Shown: one piece after another, positions 22,602-29,219 of the stretch
Layout: each line of letters begins with the position of its first letter
Position numbering within the stretch: the stretch's first letter is position 1
The notes under the pieces: model-generated
The model's database searches: none
Told to the model about the DNA's origin: nothing
Seen by the model: the letters and a program-made list of their open reading frames with translations, nothing else
Position numbers and translations under genes: made by a program
NCBI GenBank assembly: GCA_964562615.1
Contig: CAZLUD010000002.1
Coordinates: 153,300 to 217,299 of the forward strand
Direction: 5' to 3'
DNA length: 64,000 nt
DNA from: an uncultured Candidatus Saccharibacteria bacterium
Lineage (GTDB): Bacteria; Patescibacteriota; Minisyncoccia; Phycocordibacterales; UBA12088

Positions 22602-24242
22602 TTACCCCGTATACGTTGCGCGGGCGAGGGAGAGAGTGTCGAAGTCGTAGACTTCTTTGAGGTGTGTATACACGGGGGTTAGTTTTTCAGTGCCGAGTTT
22701 TTTAAAGGCGCTATGGATGTGTGCCAAATCGTCCGCATCAAAAAGTGCAGAGAGCGTAGCCATGTCAGCGGCAAGCAATGCTCCTTTTTTATTGAGAGCA
22801 TCAAGGTGTCCAATAATAGTACGCACTGTCATGCCACGCGCTTTTGCTATCTCAGCAGGCGTCTTTCCGGTTCGGAGTAATTGCAGTGTTTCTTCAGTGG
22901 TAGATAGTTTTTTCTTGCTTTTTTGAGGAGAGAGTCCCACTGTGCCGCCCATGGCGGTGATTGATCGCACGTGAAGCGTGTCTATTTCTTCCTTACTCAT
23001 ACTCATAAACATACGGCGCGCTTGATGAGACTCTTCCTTTACCACCGCATCAGTATCACGCACGAGCGGATGTACCTCGAGCGCTCGTTCGTTAAATCCA
23101 ACAAGATACAGTCCCTCTATTGTCCTAATACGTGAAAGTGCGACGTATCCCTGCCCGTATTCAAATGCTTTACTCAAATCAATATACGCCGCATCAAGAC
23201 TCATACCCTGGCTTTTGTGTATAGTAATAGCCCACGCAAGGCGCAGTGGTAACTGTGTTACTTTAGCAAGTACCTTTCCCTCTTCTTCAAGCGTCCATTC
23301 CATAAATGGCACGTCAATCGTTTTGCCATCGCGGGTTTTAACCACCGGCACGCCATCACGCCTAAATGCCTCAACAACTCCAAGAGTACCGTTCGCAAAT
23401 CCTTCTTCGGGATTGTTTTTGGTAAACATCACCGCGGCACCCTTTTTTATCACAAGCTCAGCAGGTGAGAGGCATCCTTTTTTAATTGCTTCAATATGAT
23501 GTGGTGAGCCTTTCTCAGTCATGCGAAAACGCTTTGCATCTCCTGGTAGCGCGGTAAGCGTTGCATCATTCATGGAGTCTACATCAGCGTTGTGGGTAAA
23601 CAGTTTAGGAATATGTCCTGAGTCAGGTATCACTTGCCTACTCTCTAATACATTCATGATTCGTGCTGTCTTGGTACCTGTACGAATGTGTGACAGTAGC
23701 TCTGTGAGCGCCTCATCCACATGTCGGTGTTGTTCATCTAAATAGCAGACCACGGGGTTAGCCGCACTCCACGCATCAGCGGTAAAGGCAAATTCGGCAT
23801 GTTCACCAATTGGTGGTAATTGAAAAAAATCTCCAACAAATATTACCTGCACACCGCCAAAAGGAAGTGGGTTACCCCGAGCGGTAATAAGTATGGCATT
23901 TACTGCATCAAGCACACCACGCGGAAGCATGGATATTTCGTCAATAATAAGAACGGTGGCTTTTTTCAGGCGCTTCACTACCCGCTCACGTTCTAAAATA
24001 GTATCAATGTCGTATTTTGACACAGAGGACTTAGTGCCCACGCCAGACCATGCGTGTATGGTCATTCCATGAAGGTGGGTTGCCGCAATGCCCGTTGAAG
24101 CAGTAACAGAGGGCTCTATACCTCTATCACGCAAGTATCTAATATACTCCCGAATTGTGTGTGTCTTCCCTGACCCTGGCTCCCCTGTCAAAAATACATT
24201 TGAGCCGGTTTTGAGAATAGTAAGTGCTTCAGCTTGCGTCAT
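22602..24242 (-). CDS. PIF1/RecD-like superfamily 1 DNA helicase with C-terminal helix-turn-helix
   Basis: Walker A TGEPGSGKTHTI, Walker B VLIIDEISML, ITIHKSQGMSLD, and a C-terminal HTH-like segment TPAEIAKARGMTVRTIIGHL. Confidence 0.8.
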   Translation of the reverse strand: MTQAEALTILKTGSNVFLTGEPGSGKTHTIREYIRYLRDRGIEPSVTASTGIAATHLHGMTIHAWSGVGTKSSVSKYDIDTILERERVVKRLKKATVLIIDEISMLPRGVLDAVNAILITARGNPLPFGGVQVIFVGDFFQLPPIGEHAEFAFTADAWSAANPVVCYLDEQHRHVDEALTELLSHIRTGTKTARIMNVLESRQVIPDSGHIPKLFTHNADVDSMNDATLTALPGDAKRFRMTEKGSPHHIEAIKKGCLSPAELVIKKGAAVMFTKNNPEEGFANGTLGVVEAFRRDGVPVVKTRDGKTIDVPFMEWTLEEEGKVLAKVTQLPLRLAWAITIHKSQGMSLDAAYIDLSKAFEYGQGYVALSRIRTIEGLYLVGFNERALEVHPLVRDTDAVVKEESHQARRMFMSMSKEEIDTLHVRSITAMGGTVGLSPQKSKKKLSTTEETLQLLRTGKTPAEIAKARGMTVRTIIGHLDALNKKGALLAADMATLSALFDADDLAHIHSAFKKLGTEKLTPVYTHLKEVYDFDTLSLARATYTG

Positions 24243-24260: not shown

Positions 24261-24767
24261 CTACATTAGACCAAGTTTTCGCCAAAACGAGAGGAGTGTC
24301 TCTGAAGACACTACCCGCCCTACTCCTTCAGCATTTGTATATTCAGGATCGTGATAGAAATAATCTTTTTTGTGTCGCCCCACTATCACCACCTGGTGAT
24401 ACTTATCACGTAGCGCTTCATCAAACCTGCGAGATACTGAAACAATAACTGGCATTCCACGTTCAAGTGCCTCATCCAAAAAATCCAATACTCGCTCATC
24501 AGAGTATTCTTTGATATCAAATCGATTGATGCTCACGTCAAATGAGTTAGCTACCTCGATAAGCTTGTCATGTACCCATCCAGATGGCCCAAATGCATTT
24601 ATGCGTAGCGCGCGAGCGAGCACTTCATCAGGAGAAATATTCTCTTTGCGATGGTAGGCAATAAGCATAGAGAGTGCCGCGATACCGCACGCACGCGGCT
24701 TCCACTCAATGTCAGTAATATGGTCATACTGTGAATAATATGGAACGATAAGTGTCGCTTCTTTCAT
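24261..24767 (-). CDS. peptidase C39-like (papain-fold) domain protein
   Basis: VPYYSQYD...PRACGIAALSML (catalytic Cys context) and YHQVVIVG (His context). The start lies 1 nt after the pheT stop. Confidence 0.7.
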   Translation of the reverse strand: MKEATLIVPYYSQYDHITDIEWKPRACGIAALSMLIAYHRKENISPDEVLARALRINAFGPSGWVHDKLIEVANSFDVSINRFDIKEYSDERVLDFLDEALERGMPVIVSVSRRFDEALRDKYHQVVIVGRHKKDYFYHDPEYTNAEGVGRVVSSETLLSFWRKLGLM

Positions 24768-24768
24768 G

Positions 24769-27114
24769 TTATCTAACGGTATGTCCTAGACTGGTGAGTG
24801 TGTTAGTGATGGCGGTCATACGCTCAAGAATTTCACTATCGGTAAGTGTTTTGGTGCGAGACAAAAACACCAATCGATACGCGTATGATACCTTGCCTTC
24901 CTTTTCAAATTGATCAAACAAATCAATGCGTGCAAGCAATGCTCCTGCCTGTGTACGAATTATGTCTTCTATCTCAAAAGATGAGACCTCATTAGGTACC
25001 CATAGGGCAATATCTCGAAGGGCAAATGGATACTGAGATATAGGCTGATATCGCACGTCATCAGTCTCTTTCAAAAAATCATACGCGACATCTTCGGGTA
25101 TAGTGACATCAGTAATGTCATACTCCACTACGTTGTCTGATTGATGTACCGCGGCGATATCACCTATCACTTCTTGTATACTCTCTGCACCTTCTTCAAG
25201 CATGGTGCGTAGTGTCGCTTCTCGCTTTTTTTGTGTTGTTTCAGCTGCGTATGCAACATGAAGCCGCTCTCCTTCTTTACTAAAGACAATACCAATTTCA
25301 AATATCATAATGTCACTACCTCCCCACAATGGCGCGTGCGGGAGATTCTTTTTTGCCGTAAGGGCGAGTGTCTCGTGTAGTGATTCTCGCAAATGTGATT
25401 TGTCTGAGGCAAGCGCGTTTTTAAGTTCTACCGCTCCTTTATCAAGTAGCGTAGAGGTGATGACTTCATTCCATCCACGTGCAACAAACGCTGCGCGAAG
25501 TCGGTGTGCAATATAGTGATGTGGGTGCGGTACAACCGGCCCATCAAATGGTGGTAACGTGGCAGATGCAATTGCTCGATATCCAGCTATTCTTCCAATC
25601 TCCTCAATAACATCTTCTCTGATACGGATGTCTCTGCGTTCAGCAGGTACAGCAATAACAAATCGCTCATCCTCAGTACCCAACCCCAACATAGAGCGGT
25701 ACCCAACAATGGTAGTAAATCGCTCACTTGTTTGTAGTGGTTCCATCACCACACCGCTACCACCTGTGGAGTGGAGCACCATACCATCTCCCATATAGAT
25801 ACCAACATGATCAACACCAACGGGGACCTTGGTACCCTTTTTGTATTCGATGCTTTCGTAATGAATGGTACCAACACCGGTGTTCGCAAACACCAAATCA
25901 CCAGGCTGAGGGTCAGTGACCTCTGTGCCAAACACATATTGATCTACCGACATACGTGGGATAGCAACCCCACTCATTGCGTACACATATGCCGTAAGTG
26001 ATGAACAATCAAATGTCTCTGGCGCATCGTACCGTATACGCGCGCCAAGCTTGTACGCCTTACCAAGGAGTGTTGGTGCATGCGCGCAGATATGCTGACG
26101 CGGCGCTATTACTTCAAAAGGAAGCTGCGCCCTTGTGAGTAAGGCAACTACTTCTTCTTTGGTGTACGACGTACCAAGGAGTGCATGTATCTCACGCAGT
26201 GAGACGCCTACTTTGTAGGGTGCAGGTAGAGGTACTTCTTGTATCGCCTCACCCACAAGCGTACCCGAAGCTATATCCATAATAAGAGAAACCACTTCAC
26301 GAAGGGCAATGGCAGTGAGTTCGATTGGTGGTTGGTTTTGAAAACGAACAGACGCATCAGTAGCAAGCTTTAATCGTTGTGAGGTTGCGCGTATTGATGC
26401 GTAGTTAAAGTGCCCCGCTTCAACCAAAATAGTTTTTGTGTTTGTATCCACCTCTGCGTGCTTGCCGCCTTTGACGCCTGCTATCCCTATTGGAGTGCTT
26501 GTCACCGCATCATAGATTAGCAGCGTGTCCTTGTTTAGCGTGTAGGTATCACCCGTAAGGGTGGTGATAGATTCGCCATCTTTTGCAGATTGAACCGCTA
26601 GGTTGTACTTCCCTTGTTCATCTTTACCAAGCTTGTCTGCATCAAATGCATGCAGTGGTTGTCCAAGCTCATACATGACATAGTTTGTCGCATCTACGAC
26701 ATTATTGATGCTTTTTTGTCCAAGACGAGTAAGATACTGCCGCAGCCACTCGGGCGATGGTTCAACAGACACCCCTTCAAGAAGCGCTATACGATATGAA
26801 TCACACAGTGAAGGCGACTCAACCGCAACACGCACTCTATCTGTAGCAGGTAGTAGTTGCGGGTGTGGTTGTCGTAGTGGATCTTTTACAAGTGGTATCG
26901 AGAGTATTACAGAGAGCTCACGAGCAATACCAAGGTGACACAGGCAATCACCTGATCTGTTTGCAAGTACATCAACATCAATTATGTCATCGCCATCAAC
27001 ATGAGCTACTCCCTCAATTTCAAATGAGTGAAAGGTGAGTAGTTCAACAAGCTTCTCGCTTGATGGAAGCGTGTCGGCAAAATAGGTCTGAAGCTGAGCG
27101 CGAGAAACTTTCAT
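24769..27114 (-). CDS. pheT: phenylalanyl-tRNA synthetase beta subunit carrying an inserted NlpC/P60-like domain
   Basis: B3_4 region (NNVVDATNYVMYELGQPLHAFD), B5 halves (SLREIHALLGTSYTKEEVVALL ... VPAERRDIRIREDVIEEIGRIAGY) and a C-terminal FDX-ACB-like end. No N-terminal tRNA-binding OB domain. Confidence 0.92.
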   Translation of the reverse strand: MKVSRAQLQTYFADTLPSSEKLVELLTFHSFEIEGVAHVDGDDIIDVDVLANRSGDCLCHLGIARELSVILSIPLVKDPLRQPHPQLLPATDRVRVAVESPSLCDSYRIALLEGVSVEPSPEWLRQYLTRLGQKSINNVVDATNYVMYELGQPLHAFDADKLGKDEQGKYNLAVQSAKDGESITTLTGDTYTLNKDTLLIYDAVTSTPIGIAGVKGGKHAEVDTNTKTILVEAGHFNYASIRATSQRLKLATDASVRFQNQPPIELTAIALREVVSLIMDIASGTLVGEAIQEVPLPAPYKVGVSLREIHALLGTSYTKEEVVALLTRAQLPFEVIAPRQHICAHAPTLLGKAYKLGARIRYDAPETFDCSSLTAYVYAMSGVAIPRMSVDQYVFGTEVTDPQPGDLVFANTGVGTIHYESIEYKKGTKVPVGVDHVGIYMGDGMVLHSTGGSGVVMEPLQTSERFTTIVGYRSMLGLGTEDERFVIAVPAERRDIRIREDVIEEIGRIAGYRAIASATLPPFDGPVVPHPHHYIAHRLRAAFVARGWNEVITSTLLDKGAVELKNALASDKSHLRESLHETLALTAKKNLPHAPLWGGSDIMIFEIGIVFSKEGERLHVAYAAETTQKKREATLRTMLEEGAESIQEVIGDIAAVHQSDNVVEYDITDVTIPEDVAYDFLKETDDVRYQPISQYPFALRDIALWVPNEVSSFEIEDIIRTQAGALLARIDLFDQFEKEGKVSYAYRLVFLSRTKTLTDSEILERMTAITNTLTSLGHTVR
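25669..26109 (-). other. NlpC/P60-like cysteine peptidase/acyltransferase-fold insertion in PheT (aa about 336-482)
   Basis: GKAYKLGARIRYDAPETFDCSSLTAYVY (Cys370), PGDLVF, DHVGIYMGDGMVLHS (His436, His448). The canonical NlpC/P60 motif order and catalytic residues are intact. Confidence 0.7.
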
Positions 27115-27115
27115 A

Positions 27116-27826
27116 CTAAAATTGTGTCACTAGTCGCAGGTCGCCATAATGAAATAGTCGTACGTCTTCAATGCCGTACTTAACTGCAACCAGACGCTCT
27201 ATTCCTGCCCCAAAGGCAAAGCCCTGATATAGCTCTGGATCAAGTCCTGCATTTTTAAGCACGGTTGGATGCACCATCCCCGCCCCCATAACCTCAAGCC
27301 AACGTTCAGTACCGTCCTTTTTCTTTAGATACATATCCACCTCGACACCGGGCTCAACAAAAGGAAAGTACCCAGGGCGAAACCTCACCGGAACGGATGC
27401 TCCATAAAACTCACTAAAGAATTGTTCAAGGGTACCCTTAAGATGCGCAAGCGTCACCGCCCCCTTCTTATCAATAACAAGTCCTTCAACCTGAAAAAAC
27501 TGTGCTTCATGCGTTGCGTCGGTTGCTTCATTTCTGTAGACGCGCCCCGGCACAATAATCCGTATTGGTGGGGTGTGTGTTTCCATATACCTAATCTGTA
27601 CCGGTGAGGTGTGTGTGCGTAATACAGTCTCTTCTCTATCTTTAACAAAAAAGGTATCTTGCGCGTCTCTCGCGGGATGATTTTTTGGCACATTAAGGGC
27701 ATCAAAGTTATACCACTCACTTTCTATAATTGGACCCTCCGCAAGGGTAAATCCCATACCAGAAAAAATCTCCGTGATGCGAGATATTGCCATCGATATT
27801 GGATGTACGTGTCCCTTTTCCTTCAT
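27116..27826 (-). CDS. pheS: phenylalanyl-tRNA synthetase alpha subunit (short form)
   Basis: HPARDAQDTFF, LRTHTSPVQIR, FRPGYFPFVEPG and GAGMVHP class II motifs. Start at MKEKGHVHP. The N-terminal coiled-coil is absent. Confidence 0.9.
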   Translation of the reverse strand: MKEKGHVHPISMAISRITEIFSGMGFTLAEGPIIESEWYNFDALNVPKNHPARDAQDTFFVKDREETVLRTHTSPVQIRYMETHTPPIRIIVPGRVYRNEATDATHEAQFFQVEGLVIDKKGAVTLAHLKGTLEQFFSEFYGASVPVRFRPGYFPFVEPGVEVDMYLKKKDGTERWLEVMGAGMVHPTVLKNAGLDPELYQGFAFGAGIERLVAVKYGIEDVRLFHYGDLRLVTQF

Positions 27827-27974
27827 GTGTAAGAAGTATAGCAAAAATGTCACATTTGGCGACTTTACAATACATCATCATATGATAAGCGCGCAGTTTT
27901 TTACCAAGGTGACAAATCTGATTTTGTTATTACAAGCCTCGCTTTTTTGGTAGTTTCTGCTACAGTTTATAGTA

Positions 27975-29219
27975 ATGAGTGGAGTAATCGAGGCGCTCAT
28001 GTACATATTCCTCTTCACCACCCTCTATTTTGAGGTGTTTCTCCTATTGGCATTTTTAGAGCGAGGAAAGGGTACCGACAAAGGCGAGGACGCGCCCGAG
28101 CTTACCCGCTACCCGCACGTCTCAATTATCGTACCTGCCTTCAATGAAGAGCAAGCGGTTATAGATACAATTCACTCTCTTCTTAATCTTAATTACCCAA
28201 AGCATAAGCTGTCTATCATTGCCGTTGATGACGGAAGTACCGACGACACTTGGCAAAAACTGCAAGCCTTCAGTAGTCATCCGATGGTCACTCTTCTCCG
28301 AAAAGAAAACGGGGGCAAACACACCGCACTCAATCTCGGTATTAAAGACTGCAAGAGTGAGCTTATTGGATGCCTGGATTCAGATTCTACGGTCCACAAA
28401 GACGCGCTTCGCTACATAGTGAGAGAGTTCTTGCTTAACGAAAAAGTTGACGCAGTCACCCCCGCTATGCGCATACAATCACCGCGCACCATACTTGAAA
28501 GAGTACAAGCGGCAGAATACACCCTAGGTATTTTTATGCGCAGGACCTTTTCATTCATGAATACCCAGATAGTTACCCCGGGGCCATTTTCGCTATTTCG
28601 TCGCTCCACCTTTGAAAAATTGGGCCCCTACAAAAAGGCGCACAACACCGAGGATCTTGAGTACGCGCTTCGTATCCAAGCATCACAAGGCCAGATCGCT
28701 AATGCGCCACACGCGCTCGTATACACACCCGGTAAGCGCGGTCTCTCTAACCTTCTTAACCAGCGAGTACGTTGGACCTATGGTTTTTTAAGAAATGCCC
28801 GCGACTACAAGCATCTCTTTTTTAACAAAGCGTATGGTGATTTGAGCTTTTTTGTACTTCCTAGCGCACTCCTTGCTATTGGGAGCGCAATCACACTTGC
28901 CGTCCTAAGCCTTTACACCTTTGGTATGAATATCGCAGAGAGAATAGCGCAATACTACTATGGCGGATTTAATTTTTCGTTTGGCATAAACTGGTTTTTC
29001 ATCAATACGGACGCGCTCATTTTTGTCATCGTAGTAGTACTCACCCTTACCCTATCGCTTATGATTCTTGGATTTGCGTTGGCGCGTGACAAGGTAAATC
29101 CAATCAACATAGGCGCCTACTTTGCTCTCTATGGACTCATTGCCCCGTTGTGGCTAGCACAGGCAGTAATACGAGTACTGCTAAAACGAGAATCAAGTTG
29201 GCAGCAAGAGCGCTCATAA
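27975..29219 (+). CDS. processive family-2 glycosyltransferase (membrane-embedded synthase type)
   Basis: VSIIVPAFNEE, AVDDGSTDDT, LDSDS and QRVRWTYG (the Q-x-x-R-W motif), with flanking TM helices. Confidence 0.85.
   Translation: MSGVIEALMYIFLFTTLYFEVFLLLAFLERGKGTDKGEDAPELTRYPHVSIIVPAFNEEQAVIDTIHSLLNLNYPKHKLSIIAVDDGSTDDTWQKLQAFSSHPMVTLLRKENGGKHTALNLGIKDCKSELIGCLDSDSTVHKDALRYIVREFLLNEKVDAVTPAMRIQSPRTILERVQAAEYTLGIFMRRTFSFMNTQIVTPGPFSLFRRSTFEKLGPYKKAHNTEDLEYALRIQASQGQIANAPHALVYTPGKRGLSNLLNQRVRWTYGFLRNARDYKHLFFNKAYGDLSFFVLPSALLAIGSAITLAVLSLYTFGMNIAERIAQYYYGGFNFSFGINWFFINTDALIFVIVVVLTLTLSLMILGFALARDKVNPINIGAYFALYGLIAPLWLAQAVIRVLLKRESSWQQERS

Follow-up and report, generated by a model that had tools for sequence, protein, structure and literature searches.

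The pheS-pheT operon found in a 64,000-nucleotide stretch of contig CAZLUD010000002.1 (the whole stretch is hereafter called the window) is that of a Paceibacterota (Candidate Phyla Radiation, CPR) bacterium. Its pheT gene codes for a phenylalanyl-tRNA synthetase (PheRS) beta subunit in which a genuine and intact NlpC/P60 domain of the p60 type is nested, with a Cys370-His436-His448 triad and a predicted catalytic competence, and it is directly followed by a gene coding for a C39-like, papain-fold cysteine enzyme. The families PheT, NlpC/P60 (C40) and C39-like are all known; what is new is the clade-wide nesting of an intact peptidase-family domain in a subunit of an aminoacyl-tRNA synthetase (aaRS), together with its dedicated partner enzyme and its fission products. 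The aaRSs are among the most intensively studied enzymes, and domains appended to them or inserted in them (editing, tRNA-binding, cytokine-like) have repeatedly given new biology. To our knowledge, no other aaRS carries an intact cysteine peptidase/amidase domain that is clade-wide and has a dedicated partner, and among the PheTs that have been solved or characterised none is known to us to contain a nested hydrolase. The observation is solid and should come as a surprise to aaRS specialists.

The pheT gene (24769..27114, minus strand) encodes a 781-aa protein in which B1, B3/4, the N-terminal half of B5, NlpC/P60, the C-terminal half of B5, CLM and FDX-ACB succeed one another. The nested p60-type cysteine hydrolase domain (aa 336-482; 25669..26109, minus strand) lies between a B5 N-terminal half (aa 300-335, YKVGVSLREIHALLGTSYTKEEVVALLTRAQLPFEV; 26110..26217, minus strand), which aligns to the Thermus thermophilus beta subunit up to residue 436, and a B5 C-terminal half (aa 483-512, ERFVIAVPAERRDIRIREDVIEEIGRIAGY; 25579..25668, minus strand), which covers positions 29-67 of the B5 profile. 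Indeed, in the alignment to T. thermophilus PheT (2iy5_B), residues 44-334 of the query correspond to residues 155-436 and residues 483-621 to residues 440-586; about 147-148 residues therefore replace a B5 hairpin turn of 3 residues, and the insertion site is predicted to be an exposed beta-hairpin turn of this peripheral domain. In Pfam, B5 is recognised only as its C-terminal half (aa 477-512, profile positions 29-67 of 67, 47.3 bits) and the insert as NLPC_P60 (PF00877; aa 351-463, 58.3 bits for a gathering cutoff of 23, E 8.3e-16). An initial annotation, made from the sequence alone, had placed an NlpC/P60 insertion at precisely these residues between the B5 halves; the alignment shows its boundaries to be right, and the profile match its family.

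The catalytic residues named in that annotation are likewise intact, as checked codon by codon: Cys370 (FDCSSL; 26005-26007), His436 (VDHVGIY; 25807-25809) and the third triad residue, His448 (VLHST; 25771-25773), all on the minus strand, are invariant in 36/36 sequences of an orthologue alignment reaching down to 39% identity, which does not fit a decayed domain. The catalytic Cys is also present in all the stand-alone forms described below. Besides the triad, six motif residues in total are invariant in this alignment, among them the upstream Tyr (Y354, 36/36), F368, G382 and D406. The p60 motifs PY..G, FDCS, (I/L)PR...Q, GDL.F, HVG.Y and.H. are all present in the insert, the triad order Cys-His-polar (here His) is canonical and non-permuted, and the FDCS, HVGIY and H-A/S motifs match those of 7cfl and 4xcm. 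All the PDB sequence matches of the insert are of peptidoglycan DL-endopeptidase types, namely Acd24020, the TTHA0266-like 4xcm, RipB, YkfC (3h41) and CwlO. With the C40 DL-endopeptidases (Clostridioides difficile Acd24020, 7cfl; Bacillus subtilis LytE/CwlO; Escherichia coli MepS; Bacillus cereus YkfC, 3h41), the insert shares the Cys-His-His triad and the flanking motifs, with up to 40% identity to p60-type DL-endopeptidases. It differs from the classical p60 enzymes in its location, inside a cytoplasmic synthetase or, when free, between two B5 halves: no signal peptide or other export signal and no cell-wall targeting module (SH3b, LysM, coiled coil) was found for the domain, which sits inside the cytoplasmic PheT. 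YkfC is itself a cytoplasmic enzyme, which works on free murein peptides in murein-peptide recycling. The window PheT has no match to LRAT (PF04970) at E<=0.01 and the matches of its relatives reach only 13.7-19.4 bits (cutoff 24.3); membership of the LRAT-type acyltransferases was ruled out on these sub-threshold matches.

Two features distinguish the family from classical p60 enzymes. One is an extra, family-specific segment (IHYESIEYKKGTKVPVG, about aa 417-433; about 25816-25866, minus strand) located between GDLVF and DHVG, that is, before the catalytic His and beside the active site. This segment measures 13-37 residues across the family, being ~20 residues longer in some orthologues, has no counterpart in 7cfl or 4xcm, and could alter the shape of the substrate groove. 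The other is the covariation of Asp369 (in FDC) and Arg386 (in IPR), encoded within 25957-26010: the pair is D..R in 162 proteins (FDC...PR), S..S in 24 (FSC...PS, Ser/Ser replacing the conserved Asp/Arg) and N..R in 7 (FNC...AR), with almost no mixed pairs, and the variants are found in hosted and stand-alone forms alike. This pattern suggests that the two residues interact and that two or three 'flavours' of substrate pocket exist. An intein or a mobile insertion was ruled out, the insert being in frame, ~46% identical across orthologues, only slightly raised in G+C content (0.48-0.50 vs about 0.45) and endowed with p60 rather than intein motifs.

The insert is widespread. Indeed, PF00877 is found within PheT in 120/120 of the best homologues, down to 39% identity, and the named insert-bearing homologues are Paceibacterota/Parcubacteria (Campbell-, Yonath-, Kaiser- and Zambryskibacteria). 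An exhaustive HMMER search with the insert only, over 1.84 billion cluster representatives (50% identity), returned 278 representative clusters at E<=1e-10; among the matches listed, most are PheTs 750-830 aa long that match at about residues 330-480. In all, the insert was seen in well over 100 independent assemblies (NCBI, JGI, ENA, Logan). Its mean pairwise identity is 45.7%, vs 46.5% for the rest of PheT; purifying selection thus acts on it just as it does on the essential enzyme. The novelty claimed in the initial annotation holds in part: no published description of NlpC/P60 in association with PheRS, PheT or an aaRS in the CPR was found, in a search outside which the subscription literature lay, but the architecture is not rare, and public pipelines already flag the domains. 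The NCBI names of the PheT orthologues are 'beta subunit-related protein', 'C40 family peptidase' or 'hypothetical', and the nested architecture explains why pipeline names ('PheT-related protein', 'C40 family peptidase', 'hypothetical') are inconsistent.

PheTs devoid of the insert are also common in the CPR. A scan of one genome per species, based on a B5 C-half pattern common to all PheTs, gave at least 14 insert-bearing loci and, as controls, many insert-less CPR PheTs, alignable with the window protein on both flanks of the insert; one of these, from Kaiserbacteria (L076), has 635 aa and a contiguous B5 (profile positions 1-67). With the insert masked, the window PheT is ~45% identical to insert-less PheTs and ~37-43% to insert-bearing ones, and both kinds interleave in a neighbour-joining tree, a crude one in which gains and losses are not countable. 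The module was therefore gained, lost or exchanged more than once, and PheRS evidently works without the insert, judging from these sequences. In a distant patescibacterial lineage (UBA7522, L014:4365-7253), a 962-aa PheT that kept B2 carries, in the corresponding B5 hairpin, an insert that is about 30% identical; either the insertion would predate the loss of B2 or it would have been exchanged between lineages.

The second enzyme of the operon is encoded directly 3' of pheT. This gene (24261..24767, minus strand) starts 1 nt past the pheT stop and codes for a stand-alone, cytoplasmic, C39-like papain-fold cysteine enzyme of 168 aa (Peptidase_C39_2, PF13529, 41.7 bits, cutoff 24). Direct reading of the DNA gives TAA-c-ATG at this junction and TAG-t-ATG at the pheS/pheT junction, each with a 1-nt spacer, so that the papain-like C39-type gene that the initial annotation had noticed here does belong to a tightly packed operon. 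The first gene, pheS (27116..27853, minus strand), codes for a short PheRS alpha subunit of 245 aa without an N-terminal coiled coil (tRNA-synt_2d, 319 bits; TIGR00468, 301 bits, cutoff 237). The predicted model of the 168-aa protein (predicted local distance difference test score 96.1) has the C39-like peptidase 3erv as best PDB match (TM 0.72, Foldseek probability 1.00), followed by the peptidase domains of ComA and PCAT1; Alr0975 (phytochelatin-synthase-like) and CtaG are also among its fold neighbours. The catalytic residues Q13, C27, H124 and D140 are well conserved (Q/C/H in 47/47 sequences; D or E at position 140 in 46/47), and 3-15 residues precede the first catalytic motif (in 44/47 sequences, those in which the motif was located); the protein is predicted to be an intact cytoplasmic enzyme lacking a signal peptide. 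It resembles the C39-like peptidases (PF13529; Bacillus anthracis 3erv, YvpB-like) and the ComA/PCAT1 domains in its papain-like fold (TM 0.61-0.72) and in its Gln-Cys-His-Asp catalytic set; unlike ComA and PCAT1, it forms a family of single cytoplasmic domains of 168-210 aa with neither an ABC transporter nor a double-glycine substrate nearby. PF03412 matches the 168-aa protein at 23 bits vs a cutoff of 22, with partial coverage of the profile. An identical protein (P0121) is labelled 'ABC-type bacteriocin/lantibiotic exporter with double-glycine peptidase domain' by JGI; this name is misleading, since the protein has no ABC or membrane domain.

The C39-like gene accompanies the NlpC/P60 domain. 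A search with the single sequence gave 4 relatives and a profile search 334; the family thus has at least 334 members, all single-domain and of 168-234 aa, and those with a source name are all from Parcubacteria or Patescibacteria. No ABC transporter was found in the neighbourhoods examined, which, with the single-domain build, sets these proteins apart from bacteriocin-processing C39 exporters. The gene lies directly 3' of pheT in the window and in L001, L004, L005, L006, L007 and L012, and pheT runs straight into gyrB in L002, L003, L011 and L013. Three of three randomly picked members of the C39-like family directly follow pheT (loci L081-L084). In a metagenome scan, which returned only PheT-hosted copies, 80 insert-bearing pheT loci were obtained (65 non-redundant, 53 with at least 700 nt downstream); among these 53 loci, the C39-like gene is adjacent in 29, located 0.6-3.3 kb downstream on the same strand in 8, and absent from the flank in 16, so that it adjoins or lies just downstream of ~70% of the insert-bearing pheT genes. 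None of the 66 insert-less pheT loci matched the hidden Markov model of the C39-like family, and in every neighbourhood retrieved the C39-like gene sits beside the NlpC/P60 module. In two loci examined, a membrane protein (L100) or an unrelated 167-aa open reading frame (L103) is encoded between pheT and the C39-like gene; a conserved third gene was ruled out, as these two frames differ.

The NlpC/P60 domain also exists outside PheT. The HMMER search with the insert retrieved complete stand-alone proteins of 199-233 aa (P0248, P0259, P0262, P0271, P0292, P0303, P0341, P0355), in which an NlpC/P60 domain that has kept its triad is flanked by a B5 N-half and a diverged B5 C-half. They begin directly at the B5 half and have no other Pfam domain; P0271 is still above the Pfam B5 threshold, and the PheRS-specific motif of the B5 C-half (P..R.D...EDLIEE.GR.YGY) has decayed in most of them. 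In L091, a gene for a 382-aa single-chain PheRS, the B5-NlpC/P60 gene (joined by a stop/start overlap), C39_2 and gyrB follow one another in that order, and pheT is missing. In L087, L088 and a further JGI contig, a single-chain PheRS gene stands beside the stand-alone gene, which occupies the former pheT slot; L087 and L088 have the stand-alone gene without the C39-like gene. In L086 and L090, the stand-alone gene precedes the C39-like gene, with gyrB next in L090. Finally, in L085 the stand-alone gene overlaps the start of the C39_2 gene, behind genes for Dus and an AAA+ protein (RuvB_N / DNA polymerase III delta' matches), and no PheRS gene is present in the 10.6 kb retrieved. Since the B5-wrapped hydrolase, usually with its C39-like partner, was kept after the loss of PheT, selection acts on the module itself, and the NlpC/P60 and C39-like pair is best described, from gene order and conservation, as an autonomous and conserved two-enzyme module.

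The single-chain PheRSs of these loci (L087:3794-4963, minus strand; L088, same; L091:3853-5001) have 382-389 aa, a tRNA-synt_2d and an FDX-ACB domain, and no pheT beside them. Their best NCBIfam match is 'PheS-related mystery ligase SrmL' (235 bits, cutoff 300), followed by pheS_mito (221 bits, cutoff 258). They share the tRNA-synt_2d + FDX-ACB core and the lack of a beta subunit with the mitochondrial-type single-chain PheRS (human 3cmq; TIGR00469), but the L087 and L091 enzymes are bacterial (CPR), fall under the TIGR00469 and SrmL cutoffs and are accompanied by a leftover B5-NlpC/P60 gene. In these lineages the beta subunit was dismantled, with B8 transferred to the alpha chain and with the loss of B1, B3/4 and B6/7. 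No paper on single-chain or monomeric PheRS in Patescibacteria was found.

Apart from the insert, the window PheT resembles an ordinary beta subunit. It includes a B3/4 editing domain (PF03483 B3_4, aa 104-282, 172.7 bits; 26269..26805, minus strand), a CLM (B6/7) domain (31.5 bits, Pfam) and an FDX-ACB (B8) anticodon-binding domain (PF03147, 65.9 bits; 24784..25038, minus strand); B5, CLM and FDX-ACB are in canonical order, B5 being split rather than contiguous, and the gene adjoins pheS. The B5 C-half is the most conserved stretch of PheT (69.5% mean pairwise identity). The editing residues T143, N144, H155 and E232, all within the B3/4 range, align to T249, N250, H261 and E334 of the T. thermophilus beta subunit and are conserved in 33-36 of the 36 orthologues. 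The domain order B1, B3/4, B5, CLM, FDX-ACB, the editing residues and the position of the gene after pheS are common to the window protein and to the bacterial PheTs of T. thermophilus (1b70/2iy5) and Staphylococcus haemolyticus (2rhs); the window protein differs from these by the lack of B2, by a B5 split by a 147-aa enzyme domain and by a TIGR00472 score (382.7) just under the curated equivalog cutoff (402.65). Indeed, B2 (tRNA_bind, PF01588) was not matched in the window PheT, whose alignment to T. thermophilus begins at residue 155, nor was tRNA_bind matched in the insert-less relative L076. With its editing and interface motifs kept, the protein is otherwise functional-looking, and its operon position and motif conservation argue for its being the genome's only housekeeping beta subunit supporting aminoacylation. 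Since this editing site has kept its canonical residues, the idea that the insert stands in for a dead one was ruled out.

PheT thus hosts a p60-type hydrolase in an exposed B5 hairpin, and this hydrolase is paired with the signal-peptide-less C39-like enzyme encoded 1 nt downstream. This two-enzyme module is selected for its own sake, being kept upon the loss of PheT and upon moving off the PheRS genes, and the insert-less PheTs of interleaved lineages do without it. Concerning function, we propose that both enzymes act as sequential cytoplasmic amidases/peptidases and that they cleave small peptides containing gamma-glutamyl or D-amino-acid linkages, the likeliest substrates being murein-type stem peptides turned over or salvaged by auxotrophic episymbionts, and PheT would be a constitutively expressed scaffold and operon rather than a substrate. 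To such a cytoplasmic two-step amidase pair, scaffolded by and co-expressed with PheT, we give an even chance. The murein-type reading is suggested by the close sequence and structure relatives, which are all peptidoglycan gamma-D-glutamyl-type endopeptidases, including YkfC, and the cytoplasmic location by the fact that PheRS is cytoplasmic and by the very short stretch that precedes the first motif of the C39-like proteins. Several observations weigh against this proposal. The murein/gamma-glutamyl substrate is read only from homology to DL-endopeptidases, and no peptide transporter, LD-carboxypeptidase or other recycling gene was found in the neighbourhoods examined. Owing to the extra segment and to the D369/R386 variants, the pocket may differ from that of classical p60 enzymes, and no C39-like gene was found in the flank retrieved for ~30% of the insert-bearing loci. 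Moreover, the stand-alone gene abuts a PheRS gene in three contexts, which comprise four loci (two being near-identical), and once does so with a stop/start overlap, and every stand-alone form keeps the B5 wrap; this adjacency and this wrap are also predicted by a function linked to PheRS or tRNA.

In that latter case, which is possible but improbable, PheRS would make an aminoacyl- or peptidyl-tRNA whose ester or amide bond is the target of the NlpC/P60 domain, alone or together with the C39-like protein; the domain would be an additional proofreading enzyme or deacylase, hydrolyse N-blocked Phe-tRNA or transfer Phe to an acceptor via a thioester, and the B5 winged-helix wrap would dock on PheRS or tRNA. 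The domain is covalently held within an aaRS across the whole clade, it stands beside a single-chain PheRS even where the loss of PheT has removed B3/4, both B5 halves are retained by all the stand-alone forms, and a distant lineage with a full-length, B2-containing PheT (L014) has the same insertion site. Acyltransferases, LRAT for example, are found among the papain-like and NlpC/P60 folds, and Alr0975 and CtaG are fold neighbours of the C39-like enzyme. However, the canonical editing site is intact and needs no replacement, the B5 C-half motif decays in most stand-alone forms, which speaks against a conserved docking surface, the pair of L085 has no PheRS gene in 10.6 kb, PheTs of interleaved lineages are insert-less, the closest relatives in sequence and structure are all peptidoglycan amidases with LRAT sub-threshold, and the linkage to PheRS is explicable by fission in place. 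The intact editing residues and the persistence of the pair without PheT favour an autonomous module over an activity dependent on the synthetase. The coupling to Phe-tRNA put forward in the initial annotation is neither supported nor excluded, except for a replacement editing site, against which the intact canonical residues stand. In its most explicit form, the domain would be a new kind of synthetase-associated thiol enzyme: Cys370 would attack the aminoacyl ester of Phe-tRNA(Phe), or that of a mischarged or N-blocked form, either for hydrolysis, which would make a second proofreading step by an unrelated fold, or for thioester transfer of Phe to an acceptor with the help of the C39-like enzyme, the B5 wrap would dock tRNA or PheRS, and the function would outlive the loss of the beta subunit; we regard this version as doubtful. 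Known aaRS editing modules (class Ia CP1, PheT B3/4 and the B3/4-like CtdA, 9f7e) are also inserted hydrolytic domains with free-standing copies, but the present insert has an unrelated fold and a thiol nucleophile, the native B3/4 is intact, and a tRNA substrate finds no support here. Another parallel is glutathionylspermidine synthetase/amidase, in which a CHAP-type amidase is fused to a ligase and opposing chemistries are held in one polypeptide. Both cases join a Cys-His amidase of the papain/NlpC superfamily to an ATP-dependent ligase, with an N-terminal fusion and a shared substrate in glutathionylspermidine synthetase/amidase and a nesting in a non-catalytic beta subunit here.

Still less probable is a role of the C39-like and NlpC/P60 enzymes as endopeptidases in the cytoplasm, for the maturation or degradation of specific proteins or ribosomal peptides, PheT being only their carrier. 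The best fold matches of the C39-like enzyme do include the leader-peptide peptidase domains of ComA and PCAT1, faint precomputed Pfam matches to ACTMAP-like_C and Peptidase_C70 exist, and the two proteases form a conserved pair, which points to a pathway; on the other hand, no ABC exporter, precursor peptide or gene for ribosomally synthesized and post-translationally modified peptides was found in any neighbourhood examined, the C39-like family is closest to the uncharacterised 3erv/YvpB-like group, and p60-type NlpC/P60 enzymes are known for cleaving gamma-D-glutamyl and related isopeptide bonds, not protein backbones. It is very improbable that the insert is a non-catalytic passenger, either a structural or decaying relic without enzymatic role or an artefact of assembly or annotation. 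Such a passenger would suit a tolerant surface hairpin of a peripheral domain and the fact that related PheTs manage without the insert, but neither the triad nor six further motif residues vary among the 36 orthologues, the insert is conserved to the same degree as the remainder of this essential enzyme, it is present in well over 100 independent assemblies, and it retained a gene of its own after PheT was lost. By these conservation data, a non-catalytic relic or an artefact is effectively excluded.

The insert-less PheTs, the free B5-wrapped copies and the single-chain PheRS lineages that kept the module are natural experiments, which make both its function and its evolution testable. If murein or gamma-glutamyl peptides are handled, the module bears on the supply and recycling of cell-wall building blocks in ultra-small, auxotrophic CPR episymbionts; if aminoacyl-tRNA is handled, it would represent a new class of enzymes for aminoacyl transfer or for quality control in translation.

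Furthermore, other genes are encoded around the operon. A PIF1/RecD-like helicase with a C-terminal HTH_40 domain (22602-24242, minus strand) starts 18 nt past the end of the C39-like gene; it matches RecD-like and candidate defence (PDC) models of PADLOC (best E 1.8e-20), and in most relatives gyrB occupies this position, 3' of the C39-like gene. PheT, the C39-like protein and the stand-alone P0248 have no match among the PADLOC-DB defence models, and a known anti-phage defence system was ruled out for them on this basis. Separate NlpC/P60 genes are located ~1 kb 3' of an ordinary pheT in three Oscillospiraceae/Clostridia genomes (L015:5371-6357, L016:3371-4342, L017:5392-6369), which is probably a coincidence, such genes being common in Firmicutes. 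In L007 (4690-7443), a 917-aa open reading frame combines the start of pheS (residues 11-166 aligned) with pheT from about residue 54, and reflects either a true fusion of alpha and beta with part deleted or an error of assembly. On the other side of the operon, the gene beside pheS (27975-29219, plus strand) codes for a family-2 glycosyltransferase whose C-terminus is a membrane region; this neighbour is conserved, usually on the opposite strand, in L006, L007, L013, L035, L044, L064, L067, L069 and L087, and the glycosyltransferase gene next to pheS is a stable neighbourhood.

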